Shown: one piece after another, positions 4,290 to 63,344 of the stretch | How positions within the stretch are numbered: the first letter of the stretch is position 1 | Layout: each line of letters starts with the position of its first letter | DNA from: Escherichia coli | GTDB lineage: Bacteria > Pseudomonadota > Gammaproteobacteria > Enterobacterales > Enterobacteriaceae | DNA: 64,000 nt | Reading direction: 5' to 3' (one strand) | NCBI RefSeq assembly: GCF_016903815.1 | Contig: NZ_CP069973.1 | Notes under the pieces: generated by a model | Database searches by the model: none | What the model was told of the DNA's origin: nothing | Seen by the model: the letters and a program-made list of their open reading frames with translations, nothing else | Program-made: the position numbers and the translations under genes

Positions 4290-4712
4290 TTACCGGTTCT
4301 GGTGCAGAAGCTGCAGTTGGCGCAGGGTATGGATATCTTCCCTGGCCTGTTCAATGCAGGGCAACAGTGCTGCCGAATCCGTTTTATCCTCATCGTTGTC
4401 GAAGATAATCCCCGATTCGCAGTCGATATTGTCCTGCAGCCACACAATCAGAATATCCAGCGCCGTTTCTGTGGCTAATGGCATTACGCTCTGTATCACT
4501 GTATTGTCTTCCGGCAACTGATGAGGGCTGGCAGAGGTCGCCGGTGTTTCGGTAGTGACACGCTCATCCACCACGCGGAGTGAATAACCATTTTCCGCGA
4601 CTTTATTAAACAGTTCAGCGAGATTAACACCATCGACGTCAACGACAATGCGCCCCATGTTCAGTGCCTGCACGTTAATGCTGTCGGCTTCCAGCGTCAG
4701 GGCCAGTTTCAT
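4290..4712 (-). CDS. YeeW-like protein
   Basis: N-terminus [31 protein letters not shown] resembles YeeW; 4-bp overlap with the toxin gene. Confidence 0.6.
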
Positions 4713-24357: not shown

Positions 24358-24526
24358 CTGATTCGTCATTCCCTTCGTCCCGCCAGTCACTGGTGTTTGT
24401 ATCGTACCGTCCGGTGTTGATGTGCGTTTTCCGTGTGTCTGCACCGGCTTAACAAAATTCAACAGGGTTTGAAAAGGAACATTTCGTGCAAATAACCGAA
24501 GCCTTAATTTCAGAGCCGGGAGACAT

Positions 24527-24891
24527 CCGGCGTTTTGTTCAGCAGGCGCTGGAGTTCTTTAATCTGCTTCATGGCAGCAGCAAGTTCAGAGGCAGGAACG
24601 ACCTGTTCTCCTGCGGCCACAGCAGTAAGACTTCCCTCCTGGTATTGCTTGCGCCAGAGAAATAACTGGCTGGCTGCCACACCGTGTTGCCGGGCAACAA
24701 GGGAGACCGTCATTCCCGGTTCAAAGCTCTGCTGAACAATAGCGATCTTTTCCTGTGTAGTACGCCGTCTGCGTTTCTCCGGTCCTAAGACATCAATCAT
24801 CTGTTCTCCAATGACTAGTCTAAAAACTAGTATTAAGACTATCACTTATTTAAGTGATATTGGTTGTCTGGAGATTCTGGGGGCTAGTCTA
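24527..24891 (-). mobile_element. IS2 fragment (left end with truncated insC)
   Basis: Near-identical to the IS2 left end seen intact at 53024; InsC translation diverges after LQRLL; terminal GGGGGCTAGTCTA. Confidence 0.85.
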
Positions 24892-24939
24892 GTTTTAAAA
24901 CGCCCCCTGCCGTATCAGAACTGGGGAATGCTACAGGGT

Positions 24940-26048
24940 TTGACCTGTTCCTCGAGGATCGTAGCGGAGCTGGCCATGAAAAAATGATCCAGGCCCGAAA
25001 TCAGCTTCTTGCTGAAGCGGCGAAAAGTCCAGCGTTAAACATGGTTCGTCCTAACGGCATGAACGATGAGCCTCAGTTCCAGATTCTGATTGATGACGAG
25101 AAAGTTCAGGCGCTTAAACTGAGCATGAGCGACGTCGACAACATAATGTCAGCAGCCTGGGGTTCGATGTATGTAAATGATTTTAACGATCGTGGACGGG
25201 TGAAAAAAGTCTATATTTAGGGCGAACCCGGCTCACGTATATCACCGCAGGATTTTGATAAATGGTATGTCCGTAACAGTGATGGCGACATGGTTTCCTT
25301 TGCCTCTTTTGCAACAGGCAAATGGATTTATGGCTCACCAAAACTGGAGCAATATAATGGTATCTCTGCTGTCGAAATCCTGGGGGAACCGGCACCAGGA
25401 TACAGTTCCGGGGATGCAATGAAAGCAATTGAGGATATTGCGGCAAGACTTCCCGAAGGTTTCCATATTTCCTGGACAGGTTTGTCTTTTGAGGAACGAC
25501 TTTCAGGTTCTCAGGCTCCTGCACTATATGCACTTTCACTGTTGATCGTCTTTCTGTGTCTGGCTGCACTGTATGAAAGCTGGAGCATTCCTTTCTCGGT
25601 CATGCTGGTTGTTCCGCTTGGTGTCCTGAGGGCTGTCTGTGCTACTTTGTTGCGCGGCCTTGGTAACGATGTCTTTTTCCAGGTCGGTTTATTAACAACA
25701 ATAGGGCTGTCTGCGAAAAATGCCATACTTATCGTGGAGTTTGCTCGTGAATTGCATGAGAAAGAAGGACTAAGCATTAAAGAGGCTGCTGTTGAAGCGG
25801 CGAGAGTGAGGTTAAGACCGATAATTATGACTTCGCTGGCATTTGTAATGGGGGTTATCCCACTGGCTGTCTCGACTGGAGCAAGTTCCGGAAGTAAACA
25901 TGCCATCGGTACTGGTGTGGTTGGAGGGATGATCACTGCTACGATACTGGCAATCTTTTATATTCCTCTCTTCTATATGTTAATTGCCGGGTTCTTCAGC
26001 CGCAGAAATAAGAAATCATCGGATAAGACTGAAGCTGAGCAATCATAA
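24940..26048 (+). pseudogene. RND efflux transporter (AcrB/MdtF family), 3' portion only, with in-frame TAG at 25218..25220
   Basis: Translation aligns to the C-terminal third of AcrB-like pumps in one frame across the stop; 5' end removed at the IS2 fragment. Confidence 0.8.
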
Positions 26049-26147
26049 GCATGAGTAAATATTCAGGTGCAGTAAACAACATACTGCGCCTGAGTAAATG
26101 GCTGTTGGGTTGGTACTAAATGCCCCAGAGATATTTCCTGAAATAAG

Positions 26148-26819
26148 ATGTCAATGGAGATTTCAACAGTGGTGCGGCACACAAAATTTGCAGCGGAAGA
26201 AACCCGCAAACAAATCCTGGATGCGGCAGAGTTCTGCTTTTGTGAGACGGGCTTTTCGAAGACGACACTGGAGATGATTGCGGTGCGCGCAGGTTGTACT
26301 CGGGGGGCCATATACTGGTATTTCAACGAAAAAAAAGATCTTCTGCGACAAGTCATCGAGCGGGTACCACTATCATTATTTGATGAGCTTACAGCCATCA
26401 AAAATGGGAGAGTTTCTGAACCGGTTAAAGCGATGTATCGTTGCTTATCACGTAGCCTGATTAAATTACAATATAATGTACACTTACGGAATGTAATTTA
26501 TATTGTGTTTTTTTGTGAAGAATGTCCGGATGATATAAGAATAAATTTCTTACAAAAAATGGTGGATGTCAATAATTTTGTGAAATTACTATGTTATATT
26601 TTCGAAAAAGGTAAGTTATATAGAGAAATATGTTCGGAAATTCGTAGTGAGGCTCTGGCGTTCCTGCTTTTTTCTTTGTTTACGGGGGTGGTGCGAAGTT
26701 GCATTCTGCAACCTGATAATAAATCCCTTTTCAGAGAGGGTTGCATAGTACTGGAGTTGACCCAATCAACCTTCACAGGCATCGATAAAAATGAACGCTA
26801 CTATAAAAAACAGCGCTGA
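26148..26819 (+). CDS. TetR-family transcriptional regulator
   Basis: N-terminal TetR HTH (RKQILDAAEFCFCETGFSKTTLEMIAVRAGCTRGAIYWYF). Confidence 0.75.
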   Translation: MSMEISTVVRHTKFAAEETRKQILDAAEFCFCETGFSKTTLEMIAVRAGCTRGAIYWYFNEKKDLLRQVIERVPLSLFDELTAIKNGRVSEPVKAMYRCLSRSLIKLQYNVHLRNVIYIVFFCEECPDDIRINFLQKMVDVNNFVKLLCYIFEKGKLYREICSEIRSEALAFLLFSLFTGVVRSCILQPDNKSLFREGCIVLELTQSTFTGIDKNERYYKKQR

Positions 26820-26937
26820 TATCAATGAGCTTGCTAAATGAATTGATGAAAATCTTGAGGTAGAACTCTCAATAAATATTGAGGCAAAAAAGCTGGATAT
26901 TCAAAATGGTATTTACAGAAATTGTTTAAACATATCA

Positions 26938-27135
26938 TTGGTATTTCTATTGGTAGGTATATTAATAAATGCAGCAGAAGAACTACGTTCTACTACTGAA
27001 TCGGTCACGACTATCACTTTTAAATATCAGTTTGATTTTCAGCAGACATTTACAAGGGCATTTACTCGCCGCTTTGGTATAGCTCCTATTGCATACCGAA
27101 AACTCGCTAAGGAAGAAGTGAGATGGAATAGTTAG
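26938..27135 (+). pseudogene. AraC-family regulator, C-terminal HTH fragment
   Basis: FTRAFTRRFGIAPIAYRK resembles the second AraC helix; upstream frame is broken. Confidence 0.45.
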
Positions 27136-27444
27136 TTATGTAAGCGTTATTTACTTAAGCGTGGATATATAAGAATGGTATTATCAATATGTTGCTCATG
27201 AGTTTTTAATAGCATATAGGCTTGTTAACATAGCCCAGCAATATAATTTGCAGTGGGAGCAGGTATGCATACAGAACAGTGGGCGAGGACGAGCGTCCCT
27301 TTTCGAACAAGGTAGCAAAAGAGGAAGAAGAAAGACAAATACAACTGGGCCTGAAAGGGTAGTGTTTAAGCCCCCTTTCAGGGGGCCGTGTCAAAGCCGC
27401 CCGCTATGCAGATGGTTTTTTACTTTATCTGTTAAGCAAAAAAA

Positions 27445-27474
27445 TGCCGCGATAAAGAAATTGTTATCGCGGCA
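27445..27474 (-). terminator. Rho-independent terminator ending the microcompartment operon
   Basis: 10-bp stem GCCGCGATAA/TTATCGCGGC followed by a T7 run on the minus strand. Confidence 0.65.
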
Positions 27475-27491
27475 GCGTCATAGCAATTTAC

Positions 27492-28037
27492 TTATTTTTT
27501 CTTGCCGCTGGAACGAGGACCTTTCTTTGCTGCCTCCTGCGGTACATCAGATTTTGTAGGTTTAGTGTTTTCTATTGAGGGTTTAACCGGTTGATGCTGC
27601 TCCATGGACTTCAGCGTTTCATCAGTGACATCCATACAGGATGCGCTGATTGACGTATCAAGGTTAACCACCGGGAATGTCTGTGAAGGCGCGTTTTCAG
27701 CCTGCAGTGTCGGTTGTGCAGCAGGCACTTCAGGTTGAGGTTCTGCGACGCCGGCGGTCACTTTAGAGTGAATAATCTGCTCGATATGCTGCGCGGTGCG
27801 GGCGATCACCTTATGGGCATACACCTCGCCAACCCGGCTTGCCGCGCTGATGGCTGCCGCTACCGCCGCGTTAATTGCGCCCACTTCCCCTTCCAGCTTC
27901 ACGGTCACCATCCCGCCGCCTTTCGTCAATTCATAGCCTACCAGACTAACGTTAGCGGATTTCATTGCGGCATCGGCGGCTTCTACCGCCGCAGACATCC
28001 CGACGGTTTCGATTAAGCCTAAACTTTTCCCAGACAT
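27492..28037 (-). CDS. BMC-H shell protein (PduA/EutM fold) with a long C-terminal extension (PduK-like)
   Basis: MSGKSLGLIETVGMSAAVEAADAAMKSANVSLVGYE... canonical BMC domain; start at internal Met with AGGAGA upstream. Confidence 0.85.
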   Translation of the reverse strand: MSGKSLGLIETVGMSAAVEAADAAMKSANVSLVGYELTKGGGMVTVKLEGEVGAINAAVAAAISAASRVGEVYAHKVIARTAQHIEQIIHSKVTAGVAEPQPEVPAAQPTLQAENAPSQTFPVVNLDTSISASCMDVTDETLKSMEQHQPVKPSIENTKPTKSDVPQEAAKKGPRSSGKKK

Positions 28038-28081
28038 AAATTTCTCCTGTAATAAATTCAACTGTGCTGCGCGTCGTCGGC

Positions 28082-29233
28082 TTAACGTCCAACGTCTTCG
28101 TATAATAGCGCCGCTTTGTCCGTAACTTCCCACGGAAAGCTGTCGCGACCAAAGTGACCATAGCAGGCTGTTTTACGATAGCGGGGGACCAGCAGATCAA
28201 GCGTAGTAATGATGCCGAACACGCTAAGATCGAAATGGCTGTTAACGCCTCTCAGCAACGCTTCAGATGACACTGTTTGTGTACCGAAGGTGTTAATCCT
28301 GACGGAAACAGGGCGGGGCAGGCCGATGGCCCATCCCAACTGGACTTCACAGCGTGAGGCAAGCCCAGCGGCGACGATGTTTTTCGCCACATAGCGAGCA
28401 GCGTAGGCGGCGGAACGATCGACTTTCGACGGATCTTTGCCTGAAAACGCGCCGCCGCCATGGCAAGCCGCGCCGCCATAGGTATCAACAATAATTTTAC
28501 GCCCCGTTAGCCCGCAGTCACCCACCGGCCCGCCAATCACAAAACTGCCTGCAGGGTTCACCAGAAAGCGGGTTTGTGGCGTGAGCCAGTGCGAAGGCAT
28601 CACAGGTTTAACAATTTCTTCGATGACCGCTTCCCGTAGCGCGTCCAGAGAAACGTCAGGGCTGTGTTGGGTAGACACCACAACGGTATCTACTGAATGA
28701 ACACGATTATCCTGATAGCGCAGGGTAACCTGGCTTTTGGCATCAGGGAGTAAAAATGGTAACCGTTGGGATTTACGCAACTGCGCCTGGCGCTCCATCA
28801 GACGATGGGCGTATACCAGCGTGGCGGGCATCAGTTCCGACGTTTCATCACAGGCGTAACCGAAGGTGATGCCCTGATCGCCCGCCCCCAGTTCTTCCAT
28901 CGAGTGGCCGCGAATGCCGTCAGCAATATTGGCGGACTGTTTGCCAAGGATATTTAATACACAGCAGGTATTGCCATCAAACCCCAATCGCGAATGGTCG
29001 TAACCAATCTCTTTTATGGTGTTGCGGACAATCTTCTCAATATCCACGGCGGCATGGGTAGATATTTCTCCGGCAACAATAGTGGCACCAGTTTTCACCA
29101 AGCATTCACAGGCAACCTTACCCCACGGGTCCTGTAGGAGTATCGCATCCAAAATGGCATCAGAAATTTGGTCCGCCATTTTATCGGGATGCCCTTCGGC
29201 AACGGATTCGGAGGTAAACAGGTAATCGTTCAA
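28082..29233 (-). CDS. S-adenosylmethionine synthetase (MetK paralog) embedded in the microcompartment locus
   Basis: [32 protein letters not shown]... and [19 protein letters not shown] motifs. Confidence 0.9.
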
Positions 29234-29361
29234 AGCGAGCCCACTTGTTTGGGAAGTTTATTCCTATCTTAGGATAGGAACCTGACAAGTGGGCGTAAAC
29301 TATCTTGCGGGCGTGTTGGACTATTTTGCTTTCATTATCGGGCCAATGCAAAATCACGCCA

Positions 29362-30417
29362 TCACCGTGTAATTCCCGGGGACACGACTTTTCGATAATC
29401 AGAGGGGGTCATGCCAGTATCTTTTTTGAAGATGCGGCAAAAATAGTTTGAATCCTGGTATGCCAGTTCCAGCGCAATGGTATTTACTTGTAAGTCACTG
29501 AACCGCAATAACGATTTGGCGATAGTAATTTTACGCGTGGCAATATAGTTCGAAAACCCGAACCCGGTAATTTTCTTAAAGGTACGGCTCAAATAGCAGG
29601 CACTGACAAACGATTTTGCTGCCACGTCATCGAGCGTCAAGTTTCTGAGAATATTTTTCTCAATATGGAATTTCGCTCGTTCGATAAAATCGATATTGCC
29701 TGTATAGCCTTTTAATGCGTAATCAAACAGTTCTTCGCTAATGGTCAGCAGGCTGATCATGATGCGGAAATAGCGGCTTTCCATCATGCCATACTGGTTG
29801 ATGTCTTTGATCAGCGCGGCGACTTTACGGTTAGTCGGCATTAACTTTTCCCCTTTGGCGGTCATATACTGGCTAACTATTTCCAGAAAATCGATCACGT
29901 CTTTGCGCTTATCCTCTTCTATCATATCCACCGGACAGGCACCGTTGATCGTGTCAAAAATAAAGTTGTGCCACTGGGTGTAATCGCAATCGTCTATCAT
30001 GGCGAACACTTTCTGTTTTAGGGCGCGGGATTTTTCATTTTCTCCTTCGTCGAATGCTAGGGTTTTTTTGATGGTGTCGGTCAAGATACATTTTTTCACT
30101 GGTTTGAGCAGATAATCATCCACTTTAAGGTTGTACATGCTGCGTACTATATCAAAGTCATCATTGGCCGTGATTACGATGATTTTAGTATCGCTGTTTT
30201 TTTTCTTCAGATATTCAATCACCTGTTTACCGTTCGGCAACGGAATATTAATATCCACTAAGATCATATTGATTTGACTCAGTTGGTCAATTAAGTGAAT
30301 CGCTTTTTTACCGGTTGAGGCTTCATGGATCGCAGCGTTTTCCACACACTGGGAGATAATCTGCCGCAGGGATTCTAATTCGATGGGCTCATCTTCAACG
30401 ATAACAATGGTAAACAT
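29362..30417 (-). CDS. Response regulator, REC domain plus AraC-type HTH output
   Basis: N-terminal receiver (IVIVEDEP ... LVDINIP) and C-terminal AraC HTH. Confidence 0.8.
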   Translation of the reverse strand: MFTIVIVEDEPIELESLRQIISQCVENAAIHEASTGKKAIHLIDQLSQINMILVDINIPLPNGKQVIEYLKKKNSDTKIIVITANDDFDIVRSMYNLKVDDYLLKPVKKCILTDTIKKTLAFDEGENEKSRALKQKVFAMIDDCDYTQWHNFIFDTINGACPVDMIEEDKRKDVIDFLEIVSQYMTAKGEKLMPTNRKVAALIKDINQYGMMESRYFRIMISLLTISEELFDYALKGYTGNIDFIERAKFHIEKNILRNLTLDDVAAKSFVSACYLSRTFKKITGFGFSNYIATRKITIAKSLLRFSDLQVNTIALELAYQDSNYFCRIFKKDTGMTPSDYRKVVSPGITR

Positions 30418-30433
30418 ATGTCTTTTTCCTGTA

Positions 30434-31696
30434 TCAGGCTTCCTGCATTGGGAACCGAAGTTTAATGGTTGTACCCATCCTGGGTTTGTTAGGGCTCATT
30501 ATTTCCAAGCCATAGCTCTCGCCAAATAACAACTTCAATCTATTTTTTATGTTGTTAATACCAATACTGCCTTTTTGCAATTTTTGGTCGCCTGATAAAA
30601 TGCGATTAATGGTATCTGGTGCGATGCCGTCGCCATTGTCAGTGACTTCAATAATCACGTTCAGGCCATCGTCCGTGGCACGGATCAGCAGATGACTATT
30701 GCTATCCCTTGGCTCCACTACGTAGTTAAAGAAGTTTTCCACCAGCGGTTGCAGGATCAAAAACGGGCAGACTACATCCAGATATTTTTCCGGGATATCG
30801 CACAGGTAATCGAAACGGTCTCTCATACGCACTTTTTGGATCGACATATAGTTGTTGACGTAATTTATTTCATTACGCAGAGTAATCAGGCCGTGACTAT
30901 TTTTACGTAACAAATAGCGCATCATGTCAGAGAAATCGTGCACCATTGTTTCGGTACGCTGCGCATCTTCAAGAAAAGCTAACCGGCCAATGGTATTTAA
31001 TACGTTAAATAAAAAGTGCGGATTTATCTGATAAGAGAGCGCTTTAAATTCAGCTTCATGTAGTGAGCGTTCTATCTCTACACGTTTTCTTAACTCATTA
31101 GCCAGTGCAAGATCCTTTTTACGAAGTTCGCGTTGGATATTATTGGTGTGCGCTTGTTCGACCAGATAAGACGATACGTGTAGTAACGTCGAGGCAGTAG
31201 ACTCAAAACGCTCATACGGCATGCGACGTGTATTCTGGTGCAAATTAATTAACCAAGGATTATCTTTCCAGACGTCATTATTATTCAGAATATAGGAAAT
31301 GCTCTGTTCTTTCTCTTCTTCGACTTTTACCTGACCGGAAATAAAAGCACCGAGATAATGATCGTTAATCATGATTGGGACAGCGAATTCGACAAAACCG
31401 CAGTGGCAGCGATAAACCACCGGTTTGCGAGCGTGCATCGCGGCACGGCCACCAGCGTTGTCGCTTTCATAACAGTGGTGCGCCAGTGTCGGGTTGAGAC
31501 GCGAACGCATGCAGAAGTCTGAAAAACCGCTGGGCTTAGTGACCGGGATACCATTCTCATCCACAACCACGAGCGCGATCATCATTGATTTTGAAAAGTT
31601 GTCCTGCAGGGTCTGAAGGCGTTTTACATCCAAAAACTCATTTAATTTGTATTTATTCTTCATACTTTCAGCCTGCATTTTTAAAAACATAATCAT
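30434..31696 (-). CDS. Sensor histidine kinase with PocR-like sensory domain; start may be a downstream Met (about 31663)
   Basis: His-kinase motifs ([13 protein letters not shown]) and HATPase region; N-terminal domain resembles PocR. Confidence 0.75.
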
Positions 31697-31965
31697 ATAT
31701 TTATAAATAATTTGTCACGAAAAAATTGAAATGGATCACAGCAACAAAAACAGCTCCGGCTCTGAAAGTAATGCTTCGGTTATTTGCAAGGGATACTCCT
31801 TTTCAAACCTTGCTGAACCAGTGCAGATACACAGGGAAACGTATACCAGAACTGCCACAATACAAACGCCAGTTACTGGCGATACGAATGGAATGACGAG
31901 GCAGTCTGTCAGAAAGCCCCACATGAACGATCACCACCTACATAGGAGGTGTTTTAAAATTGATC

Positions 31966-33769
31966 GAGTAGGAGGCGGGATCACTCCCGCCGTCCTCTCA
32001 CACCACCGTACGTGCGGTTCCGCATACGGCGGTTCATGTTAACTCTGGAACTGCCTCTACTGTTCCAGCAGTGATATCAGACCCTGCCTCCTGAACCATG
32101 CATTCTTTATCGCCTGATTCATATGGCTTGACCCTGAGTTCCACCATGGCCCGTGGTTGTTGTACGCAGAGATCATTGCCCTGTCCTTACTCAGTCCTGC
32201 TCTTTGCAGATTCTTTGCCCGGGTTCGCGGTCTCTTCCACTGCCGCTACAACAAGCAACGCAGTTTCCGTTTGATCCAGCCATCCAGCTCCTCCAGCACT
32301 CCTCTGACTTCCGTCAGCCTGAAGTAGCTTATCCATCCACACAGCACTGGTGTCAGAGCATTGATTGTCGCTTTCACTGATTTGCTCCGGTTTCCCGTCG
32401 TCAGACTGTGGACTTTCTCCTTCAGCCTGTTCACGCTCGTCAGGGCTATCTTCAGCTTCGCCTGTTTGTGCCATGTCACACTGTACCCGAGGAACTTCCG
32501 ATCCCACGGGCGCGCCACCGCGCTCTTCTTCTCATTCACCTTCAGTTTGTTCTCCACGAACGCCCTGATGTTCTTCAGCAGATGGTCGCCCGCTTTCCGG
32601 CTGCTTACGTAGATGTTGCAGTCGTCTGCGTAGCGGCAGAAGCTGTGTCCACGACGCTCTAGTTCTTTATCCAGTTCATCCAGCAGGATGTTCGACAGTA
32701 ACGGCGACAGTGGGCCGCCCTGCAGCATGCCCGCCTGCCGTTTCTCCCTTTGCCCGTCTTTAACCATTTCCACTTTCAGGTAGCGGCGTATCAGTCACAG
32801 CACCCGCCTGTCCTTTATCGTTCTGGCCAGACGCGTCATCAGGAGTCTGTGATCCACCCGGTCGAAGAACTTCTCCAGATCCATATCCACCACCCACCGT
32901 TTGCCACCCCGTATGTAACGCTGTGCCTGTTGCACCGCCTGCTGGATAAGCCTGTCCACCACCGTCGGGATGCCTGAGGTTCTCACGCCGCCATCCGGCT
33001 TCGGGATATCCATCCGGCGTATTGCCCGCGGCTGGTAGTTTCCGTCAATCAATGCCTGCCTGACGCTGCGCCAGTTCTTCTTCAGCCACGGTTTCAACTC
33101 CGCCACGCTGAGGTTATCCACCCCCGCCGTGCCTTTGTTTTCCAGCACGCGCTGATAAGCCAGCATCAGGTTTTCTCTCGTTATCACCGCTTCCATCGTC
33201 AGCGGCACTTCCGCTTTCGTTTGCCCACCCGCCGCCGTGCTGATTTCAGCGCCATCATGCAGCCCTGACGGATACTGTCCGTCTCCTCTGCCGCTGGTCG
33301 CAGTTGCCTGCGCTTGTGCTTCATTAATCATCATCGGGTTCGGATGTCCTAATCACAGTTAATCATGTTCGGCCCTTCATGCTGCCGGTTTTGCAGCACT
33401 ACTACGGCGTCGGCTGACTTCTGCCGCCCCATCCCGGCGCCTCACGGCGCCGGTAGCACACTGGCAGGGCGACAGATCTCCCGGGGTAATTCACGTGACT
33501 TTCCTGCTTATGCCTGTCGGCTTTACGTCACAGCGTTCCGTGTGAGTATCGGGCTTTGGTGATTTGTGCCACCTTACCCTGCTGCGCCGCCTTAACCGCT
33601 TCCTGTTCGTCAGGCCAGCATTTTGCATCCAGCTTCCTTCAGATTTCACCTCGCGATGAACACCCTTGCCTTCCGCTAACACTTCCCCTCACCGGGTGTG
33701 TGGAGGACTTTCACCTCTTAGTCGTTCTTCTGCCACCACAGTTGAAGAACAGCGCCAGTCACGGCGCAC
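31966..33769 (-). mobile_element. Degenerate group II intron (class C-like) inserted after a terminator hairpin
   Basis: 5' end GTGCGCC immediately after hairpin 33771..33810; domain V-like CCGTATGCGGAACCGCACGTACGG near 32000; disrupted RT ORF inside. Confidence 0.65.
32246..33334 (-). pseudogene. Group II intron reverse transcriptase, disrupted (in-frame stop, internal deletion, C-terminal truncation)
   Basis: Two abutting ORFs (179 and 175 aa) with RT motifs FCRYADDCNIY and GGPLSPLLSNILLDELD. Confidence 0.8.
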
Positions 33770-33770
33770 A

Positions 33771-33810
33771 TAACAAAAAGCCAGCAGGCAGACACTGCTG
33801 GCTTTTTGTT
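33771..33810 (-). terminator. Rho-independent terminator after the membrane-protein gene
   Basis: AAAAAGCCAGCAG...CTGCTGGCTTTTTGTT hairpin. Confidence 0.7.
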
Positions 33811-33819
33811 ATGGCGGGA

Positions 33820-34725
33820 TTAAAACAGGGGAACCAAGGTAAATAATCCAATGGTCGCCAACAGATTAATCATCGTGGTCATAATGGTGATGACCATCGC
33901 CGGCGGGTCAATATGTGTATCGCCGTGGATCAGGAAGATACGCGACATCAGTTCACCCAATATCGCGCAAATTATGCCAACGATAGCAGCCCAAATCAGG
34001 CTACCTGATGGCACCGCTACCAACGCGGCAGGCAGCGAAATATGATGTGACACCGGTACCTGAGTATTGAAATGCAGGAAAATCAGTGAGAACGCGGAAA
34101 TACCAAACGCCAGCAGCGCGCCGTTGCCGCCAAACTTCAGGCCTAAAAAGCCTGCCATCAAGCCAATACCCAAGCCCAGCACGGAAAGCTGCGGAATGCG
34201 GCTATGGTAAGGTATCCAGCACTTATCCTGCGGCGGATAGCAGTGACGAATTCCCTGCTCCGGTTTTCCAAACAGGCCAGTTTTACCGAAAACCAGACGC
34301 GAGACCACGCCAGAAATCACCACGGTTAGTGCCACGGTATCGGTCCAAGCATTGCCGGACGGGAAGGCCGGAATCTGGTTCAACCCCCAGGCGATGATGT
34401 AACCAACCGCCCCAAAAACCCCGCCTACCAGCAGCACATCGTAAGCCGCCAGACCGCTCAACCCGGCAGTGATATCACGCCCGGAACCCAGCTTGCCTTT
34501 CTTCGCTGCATACGCCGTCGCCGCAACCCCAGCGGCAAAGCCGCCGGTGTGCGGGCCAAACAGTCCAAACGGAAAAGTAATAAAGTCCGATGATGCTCCG
34601 GTAATAATTTGCACTACCGTCATGGCGATAACCAGAAGCCCAACGAATTCAAACGCCGCCAGCGCGCCAACAGCCGCACCAAATATGCCGCCGCCGAAGG
34701 CAACTACAATATCTAAGCTATTCAT
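33820..34725 (-). CDS. Integral membrane protein (putative substrate transporter of the locus)
   Basis: 301-aa highly hydrophobic, Gly/Ala-rich ORF. Confidence 0.6.
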   Translation of the reverse strand: MNSLDIVVAFGGGIFGAAVGALAAFEFVGLLVIAMTVVQIITGASSDFITFPFGLFGPHTGGFAAGVAATAYAAKKGKLGSGRDITAGLSGLAAYDVLLVGGVFGAVGYIIAWGLNQIPAFPSGNAWTDTVALTVVISGVVSRLVFGKTGLFGKPEQGIRHCYPPQDKCWIPYHSRIPQLSVLGLGIGLMAGFLGLKFGGNGALLAFGISAFSLIFLHFNTQVPVSHHISLPAALVAVPSGSLIWAAIVGIICAILGELMSRIFLIHGDTHIDPPAMVITIMTTMINLLATIGLFTLVPLF

Positions 34726-48064: not shown

Positions 48065-48703
48065 TTGCCGCTGCACTGCTTCAGGAATGTATTCACCCCT
48101 CATAAAGGCTTCAATGACTCTCCGCCATGGCAAACATGCCATAGGGGGAGATTTTCAGATAATGATAATAATGTTCGCCCACATCCGATTGTAAATGGAT
48201 CAGAAAAACGGCCGCGTATTGCCCTGCTGAATGTGGATTACGTCACCAGTTTTGAACTGCCTTTTCGCTTGCTGCTTACCCGGACACCACAACTGATTGC
48301 CGCGCTGCGTGAAGAATGGGGCATCAGCCAGAAAAATGTGGTGTTTAACGATAAACGGTTTGGTTGCGTGTACAGCCTGAAGGCCAGCCTTTCTGGTGTG
48401 CCGGATACATTCCGGTATCATCTGTCTCACCGTATTCGTCGCGTGGTTGGGAATGAAAACACATCATTGCCATATCAGCAGGTTGCCCGGGAAGTGAAAG
48501 CGCCCCGTGAACGGCTGAAGTATGCACTGGAGGCGGGTTTACTGGTGACTGCACTGGACGGCCTGTTCTGGTTTGGCAGTCAGCGTATTGCGGCTGATGT
48601 TCTGAGGCTGAGAAAGGCCGGAATGCCGGTGGTGACCACGACCGTGGAGGTGCACGATAACCTGACAGGAACAACCCGCAAAGTACCGGCATACCATCTC
48701 TGA
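48065..48703 (+). CDS. Hypothetical protein (start uncertain)
   Basis: 212-aa ORF, no family recognised. Confidence 0.4.
   Translation: MPLHCFRNVFTPHKGFNDSPPWQTCHRGRFSDNDNNVRPHPIVNGSEKRPRIALLNVDYVTSFELPFRLLLTRTPQLIAALREEWGISQKNVVFNDKRFGCVYSLKASLSGVPDTFRYHLSHRIRRVVGNENTSLPYQQVAREVKAPRERLKYALEAGLLVTALDGLFWFGSQRIAADVLRLRKAGMPVVTTTVEVHDNLTGTTRKVPAYHL

Positions 48704-60604: not shown

Positions 60605-63344
<2,740 letters not shown>

Follow-up and report, generated by a model that had tools for sequence, protein, structure and literature searches.

Position and extent of the intron

The window, a 64,000-nt stretch of Escherichia coli DNA, carries on its minus strand the grp locus (grpA–grpS) of a glycyl-radical 1,2-propanediol microcompartment. 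Between grpO, with its stop at 33820, and grpP, which starts at 31696, positions 33769–31963 of the minus strand constitute a 1807-nt class C (IIC) group II intron of the E. coli grp island. The intron and its 5' exon contain the following features.

33771–33811, minus strand: T1, the hairpin of the grpO intrinsic terminator, AUAACAAAAAGCCAGCAG / CUGCUGGCUUUUUGUUA(U), which is the 5' exon of the intron; from folding
31963–33769, minus strand: the whole intron, E.c.I6, from GUGCG to CUACUCGAU; from Rfam, and coextensive with the published E.c.I6-1a
33491–33660, minus strand: core of domain I including an epsilon-prime region of IIC type; RF02001, 141.1 bits
33564–33567, minus strand: EBS1 (ACAA), in the loop of the hairpin GGUGG-CACAAAU-CACC at 33573–33558; from covariation
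33372–33456, minus strand: distal domain I to the domain III/IV region; RF01998, 73.8 bits
32039–33334, minus strand: RT/maturase pseudogene in domain IV; from alignment with the intact M9 copy (462 aa) and comparison of the codons
32003–32032, minus strand: domain V, 30 nt; from the RF00029 alignment and folding
31963–32002, minus strand: domain VI, its branch-point A bulged out at 31969, with AU as the 3' end; from RF00029 and folding

The limits of the intron follow from the Rfam matches, the 5' junction and the fold of T1. Three Rfam models match at the gathering threshold, all of them on the minus strand between the grpO stop and the grpP start, namely RF02001 (group-II-D1D4-3) at 33660–33491 with an E value of 3.6e-29, RF01998 (group-II-D1D4-1) at 33456–33372, and RF00029 (domain V/VI) at 32034–31963 with 50.4 bits. 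The 5' junction reads ...AUAACAAAAAGCCAGCAGUGUCUGCCUGCUGGCUUUUUGUUAU|GUGCGCC..., where the GTGCG starts at 33769 and the final exon base is the T at 33770, and the 3' end (...CUACUCGAU) is placed at 31963, the point at which four independent copies diverge, in agreement with published coordinates. The general hallmarks of group II introns are present: the GUGCG, a domain V, a domain VI with a bulged A, a 3' AU, and the remnant of an ORF between D1–D4 and domain V. The three matches bear out an earlier note on this DNA, which had called a group II intron here, but its 3' limit of 31966 was 3 nt short.

The intron is not new. A query of 1808 nt shows 100% identity to E. coli strain ECE204, and the segment 4320108–4321914 of strain CFT073, which is likewise flanked by grpO and grpP, matches the window intron in length and at both ends and is identical at 1798 of 1807 bases (9 mismatches, 99.5%). 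This segment is listed by Leclercq & Cordaux 2012 (PMC3522654) as E.c.I6-1a, with an ORF of class C and a location "in PAI SelC-Island", and all four E.c.I6 copies found in that study have a disrupted ORF. The window element is the catalogued E.c.I6 in the nomenclature of Zimmerly.

The intron begins right behind the T1 hairpin and its T-rich tail. The hairpin (33811–33771) folds with -25.5 kcal/mol and a z-score of -7.1, and an insertion directly after a terminator hairpin, as first noted from the letters alone, is confirmed by this fold. A terminator scan of the minus strand missed T1, which was instead established by folding, probably because the palindrome is extended by A/U pairs and leaves no T tail after the stem. 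The separation of the enzyme and shell genes from the regulatory genes also holds, with grpO on one side of the intron and grpP on the other, but the intron had been placed inside the operon, and it sits past the terminator that ends grpA–O, between two transcription units.

Ribozyme structure and target site

In IIC introns (PMC1702495) the distal stem of domain V is 2 bp shorter than in IIA and IIB, with a CGC instead of an AGC triad, the epsilon-prime region has an 11-nt bulge and a conserved AGGAA, and the EBS1–IBS1 pairing is just 3–4 bp. EBS2 and IBS2 are lacking and a terminator or another stem-loop takes that place in the 5' exon, while the EBS3–IBS3 interaction pairs the first base of the 3' exon, as in IIB introns. 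Domain V of the window copy is CCGCCGUAUGCG-GAAC-CGCACGUACGGUGG, with the CGC triad, a GAAC loop, an AC bulge and a distal stem of 3 bp, and four model positions of this stem are absent in the RF00029 alignment. Folding gives the same short stem and a single bulged A in domain VI. In the RF02001 alignment the 11-nt unpaired stretch is AAUCUGAAGGAA, and the AGGAA of epsilon-prime is found at 33638–33634.

EBS1 was assigned to window positions 33567–33564 because a domain I loop, at intron positions 203–206, covaries with the last four exon bases (-1 to -4); the pairs are AUAC/GUAU in M9 and strain 4848, and ACAA/UUGU in plasmid pMADE-3 and VE-T10. An alternative EBS1, GAUAC in the unpaired CCCGAUACUCAC, was ruled out as it is invariant with respect to the exon, while the loop at 203–206 varies. 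At the window site the EBS1 ACAA faces the IBS1 UUAU (33773–33770) with three of four bases paired. The first base of the 3' exon is C in the window, in M9, in strain 4848 and at the empty sites described below, and G in pMADE-3, where an IS200/IS605 element abuts the intron. This element (positions 4356–4487 of locus L035; Rfam STnc490, 124 bits, with tnpA downstream) is flush with the intron 3' end.

Further insertion sites of the family were found in M9 (after a terD-family gene), strain 4848, pMADE-3, WP2-W18 and VE-T10, together with the site of an intron with 77% identity on an IncC plasmid. Upstream of IBS1, no sequence is common to the six independent 5' exons. A hairpin precedes the intron at six of six sites, ending 7–14 nt before it, or at the junction when A–U pairs are counted; stable hairpins were folded for T1 of the window and four sites, and those of WP2-W18 and the IncC plasmid were recognized by reading the sequence only. 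All the further E.c.I6-family sites and that of the IncC intron follow a hairpin, at most sites with a T run.

The three Rfam scores of the window copy, 141, 74 and 50 bits, compare with 139, 72 and 48.5 bits for the intact M9 copy, and the density of substitutions between the two is 3.5% in the ribozyme and 3.4% in the ORF. The ribozyme cores score as well as those of intact relatives, and look better kept than the RT gene.

The reverse transcriptase pseudogene

Compared with the M9 copy, the RT/maturase gene of the window is interrupted by three nonsense codons, R209 to TGA (32797–32795), W394 to TAG (32248–32246) and Q457 to TAG (32059–32057). An in-frame deletion of 87 nt between 32943 and 32942, flanked by GCAGGCG repeats, removes codons 131–160 including ..SYGFRPGR.., and a second one of 6 nt between 32549 and 32548 removes one AAACTG repeat. 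There are in addition 17 other amino-acid changes, among them P233L at 32725, a change of Pro to Leu in the PQG motif. The earlier note was right that the gene is broken by a stop and by deletions but undercounted the lesions, and its description of the intron as degenerate suits the RT gene, which is a pseudogene, but not the ribozyme cores. An intact RT/maturase frame is required for autonomous mobility and is lacking in the window copy, which cannot move by itself because this gene has decayed.

Among proteins of solved structure, the intact M9 protein (462 aa) matches GsI-IIC with 473 bits and the Eubacterium rectale IIC RNP with 364 bits, followed by a match of 293 bits, all IIC reverse transcriptases. 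LtrA, the IIA protein, gives 150 bits, and 6me0 ("Maturase reverse transcriptase"), the IIB protein T.el4h, gives 119 bits. Pfam finds RVT_1 and GIIM only in the M9 protein, and no endonuclease domain. By these matches of the intact relative, the E.c.I6 family encodes a protein of class C descent that has RT and maturase domains. Together with the short domain V and its CGC triad, the AGGAA of epsilon-prime, the EBS1–IBS1 pairing of 3–4 bp and the upstream hairpin, this IIC-type RT upholds the assignment to class C made when the sequence was first read.

Distribution and origin of the grp copy

Of 5426 complete E. coli genomes, 1248 contain members of the E.c.I6 family, and about 525 copies reach 99% identity or more to that of the window. 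The 5426 genomes were also searched for the empty site with an artificial query that joins the end of grpO and T1 to the DNA downstream; the empty junction between T1 and the segment that follows the intron (X2, see below) would read ...GGCTTTTTGTTATCAATTTTAAAACACC... No genome had the two halves of this query joined, about 535 had both halves split, and a main-type grp locus lacking the intron was found in 0 of 5426. At least 80% of the intron is found on 166 of 72,556 plasmids. Intact copies of ltrA with 93–99% identity are common on E. coli plasmids and are also found in some chromosomes, and the intact relatives sit at other terminators. These population data indicate that the grp copy is a fossil that has become fixed and that its family remains active elsewhere.

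An active ancestor would, by analogy with other IIC introns, have been transcribed and spliced, and would then have reverse-spliced into the DNA directly behind the grpO terminator. The target may have been recognized by the hairpin, by an EBS1–IBS1 pairing of 3–4 bp (ACAA with UUAU) and by the C at +1, and the DNA copy was probably made by the endonuclease-less reverse transcriptase of the intron itself, as expected for this class. The RT/maturase gene has decayed through the three stops, the two in-frame deletions and the change of a catalytic-motif residue, and the copy probably spread by being carried along with the grp island. We consider it very probable that the element is E.c.I6, a class C group II intron, here in the state of an immobile fossil. 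Homing of IIC introns to terminators followed by decay has already been described for Enterobacterales, and the window copy is one more confirmation of this pattern. Against the fossil reading stand the undegraded ribozyme cores, with scores equal to or slightly above those of the intact copies, and the fact that just three of four EBS1 bases pair at the window site.

Because the cores are undegraded, splicing, or mobilization by the protein of a relative, might still occur. The copy would then be non-autonomous and not dead, and would splice or retrohome with an intact E.c.I6-family maturase supplied in trans from a plasmid or a chromosome, which we regard as doubtful. The equal Rfam scores for D1–D4 and for domains V and VI speak for this, as does the abundance of closely related intact ltrA genes. 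On the other hand, EBS1 differs among the grp copies (in CFT073 at intron position 205), arguing against constraint, and outside grp the 87-nt deletion was seen in no copy, in a search that separated deleted and undeleted copies poorly. A count of such copies outside grp was discarded as uninformative since the search joins the two halves of undeleted copies.

The 5' end bears on the same question, as the window copy lacks one of the two 5' hairpin units of its intact relatives. Immediately behind the 5' GU, copies of the family have one, two or three 19-nt units, each GCGCC-6 nt-GGCGC followed by GUA (L002 3982–4000, L036 2463–2519). The window has one unit, with the gap at 33768/33767, and the intact relatives, including the IncC plasmid intron, have one more. 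The varying number of units looks like the result of slippage between GCGCCG repeats. We had at first taken the gap for a crippling deletion, but this view was softened, as the unit is a tandem repeat of variable number and the single-unit form recurs in VE-T10 at an independent terminator. For this reason the missing unit is not counted as proof of damage to the ribozyme, and the VE-T10 form is a point in favor of a copy that can act in trans.

Intron-free loci and the inverted regulator block

Orthologous loci were searched for with GrpO in species-representative genomes and were found in Atlantibacter (three species), Silvania (two), Citrobacter freundii, Superficieibacter, Mixta, Symbiopectobacterium, Serratia, Budvicia and an Enterobacteriaceae MAG. 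None of the orthologous grp loci of other genera contains the intron. Both grp blocks were seen in 13 of 15 enterobacterial loci, and grpPQRS is convergent with grpA–O in all 13; the other two loci are from Budvicia, and one of them is without a match to grpPQRS. The convergent order is grpO, T1, spacer and T2, followed by grpS to grpP on the opposite strand. A divergent grp allele in two of the 538 grp-positive E. coli is likewise convergent and intron-free, and in one of these two, strain L73, grpO and grpS are 112 nt apart. An orthologous T1 is found at the empty sites of Atlantibacter, Citrobacter and Silvania, where the sequence is GGCUUUUUGUU(UU)AU|C, that is T1 followed by C, so that the comparison with intron-free orthologues reveals the empty terminator site.

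The main E. coli type is different. On the grp-sense strand its order is grpO, T1, the intron, a segment called X2, the grpP-proximal ~55 nt of its upstream region, grpP–grpS, T2 with its spacer, a copy of the T1 tail and then unrelated DNA. The segments concerned are as follows.

31755–31962, minus strand: X2, 208 nt, with no homologue in the orthologous grp loci; homology to relatives stops at 31750–31754
31697–31754, minus strand: retained proximal part of the grpP upstream region, 55–58 nt; from homology to relatives
27413–27473, minus strand: the grpS terminator T2 (27473–27446), then the spacer, then the T1 tail once more, empty (27430–27413); from alignment to Atlantibacter

From the convergent, intron-free order in the relatives and the junctions of the main type, the regulator block has been inverted in E. 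coli. By comparison of the sequences, grpPQRS (27413–31754) has in the main E. coli type the opposite orientation to that in the 13 loci of other genera and the two atypical E. coli. No description of this rearrangement was found in the literature examined, and it is possibly unreported. At the far end of the block the T1-tail copy, 17 nt long and empty, adjoins T2, and the whole aligns contiguously with T2, spacer and T1 of Atlantibacter. At the near end, homology to the empty sites stops 0–1 nt from the 5' end of the intron and resumes only 208 nt beyond its 3' end. The region upstream of grpP is conserved over ~150–200 nt in six relatives and over ~55 nt in the main E. coli type, which has lost a further 100–150 nt of conserved sequence. 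The context of the regulator promoter is unlike that in all relatives, because only ~55 nt of the upstream region are left and foreign DNA adjoins them.

Positions 51–207 of X2 are a diverged copy, with 70–76% identity, of an element from the backbone of genomic islands in E. coli, present in 3491 of 5426 genomes of this species and usually located downstream of a module of YagK/YfjJ, a hypothetical gene and an HTH gene. A second copy of this element, ~150 nt, is located at 24363–24547 (plus strand), inverted relative to that at 31756–31912 (minus strand), and the element overlaps the start of a gene of the "UCP030791 family". Between the island backbone and grpS, at 24533–27384, lie an IS3 fragment, a pseudogene of an RND efflux permease, a TetR-family gene and an AraC-type C-terminal fragment, and the backbone resumes only at 48197. 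The short HTH gene beside grpS had been considered an AlpA-like backbone gene and is this AraC-type fragment. The start of X2 was considered as a third copy of T1, but the similarity is not significant (p about 0.08). An apparently contiguous Y–X2 junction in strain JSWP006 is a BLAST over-extension, and the usual arrangement is found there.

X2, which flanks the intron at its 3' side, is not what natively follows the terminator region, and the history of the insertion is therefore not a simple retrohoming into the ancestral locus. The intron, or an intermediate of its insertion, might have taken part in the inversion of grpPQRS, marking and perhaps causing the switch to a co-directional order. 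The convergent and intron-free loci, the break of homology exactly at the intron 5' end with its return past X2, and the empty T1-tail copy beside T2 speak for this, and still we find it improbable. There is no second, inverted intron remnant at the other breakpoint, where alignment was no better than with shuffled sequences and Rfam found nothing at E values up to 10, and duplication of the target is not known for group II retrohoming. The inversion could have come first, with the intron then simply inserting into the one T1 left intact, and X2 and the truncated grpP upstream region are further breakpoints that do not depend on the intron. Inversion by recombination between two inverted intron copies was rejected on the lack of a remnant near the T1-tail relic, and a chimera of two grp cassettes was rejected since both blocks rank the relatives in identical order. 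An extended version, that insertion of a IIC intron at the palindromic terminator triggered the inversion and that read-through across T1 and the intron now couples expression of the regulators to the operon, is a more improbable speculation still.

Transcription and regulation

With the block now co-directional, read-through of T1 would run through the intron toward grpPQ, which was impossible in the ancestral arrangement. The sole σ70-like match on the grp strand between the intron and grpP, at 31718–31689, falls in the retained native region, and no promoter-like site on this strand was detected within the intron or at its 3' end. Located behind a strong terminator and ahead of the retained proximal promoter region of grpP, the intron is most likely little transcribed and neutral DNA between two transcription units. 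Nothing in the analysis pointed to a function of the intron.

That the intron was co-opted as a regulatory spacer, acting as an insulator or as the source of a promoter or a processed RNA for grpPQ, is very improbable, even though it is present in every main-type locus, outward promoters are reported for IIC-attC introns (PMC3001079), and it now lies upstream of a two-component system with known roles, whose genes grpP and grpQ are co-transcribed according to PMC11724981, where the intron is unmentioned: the only promoter-like match is native, fixation is explained by one insertion in the ancestor of the island, and the RT gene decays neutrally while the copies vary by point changes, EBS1 included.

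The preferred reading, an immobile fossil between two transcription units, has practical value for annotation. Hundreds of RefSeq genomes have two short CDSs annotated as "maturase", "RT-domain" or "hypothetical" between grpO and grpP, and both are pieces of a single pseudogene. The comparison of loci has a by-product that may help those who work on GrpP and GrpQ more than the intron, which matters little. CFT073, the model locus for GrpP/GrpQ of uropathogenic E. coli, has the rearranged form, in which the orientation of the regulator block is opposite to that in every other genus examined and its upstream region of ~55 nt is fused to foreign DNA and to a 1.8-kb intron.

Comparison with known group II introns

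A second and intact group II intron is located in the window at 60605–62875 (plus strand), with 99.8% identity over 2271 nt to E.c.I4 of plasmid pETEC_74 from E24377A. Its ltrA (503 aa) is found at 61276–62784, and it is inserted in a transposase gene of the IS3 family, fragments of which flank it. Although located in the same island, E.c.I4 is of another lineage than E.c.I6, with an intact ltrA and with IS3-family transposase genes as targets instead of terminators, and the copy in the window shows a domain V/VI match without the D1D4-1 and D1D4-3 matches seen in E.c.I6.

The intact protein of the E.c.I6 family aligns end to end with the GsI-IIC RT and the Eubacterium rectale IIC RNP (PDB 6AR1, 7UIM) and has the same RT and maturase architecture, whereas the window gene lacks 29 codons of the RT fingers and has three stops. 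B.h.I1 of Bacillus halodurans (PMC1702495) shares with the window copy the insertion at a terminator, the EBS1–IBS1 pairing of 3–4 bp, the short domain V with CGC and the AGGAA, but is an active ribozyme with an intact ORF, while the ORF of the window copy is dead. E.c.I6-1a of CFT073, in a selC-associated island, agrees with the window copy in length, boundaries, position between grpO and grpP, class C assignment and disrupted ORF, and differs from it by nine point changes, one of them in the EBS1 loop.
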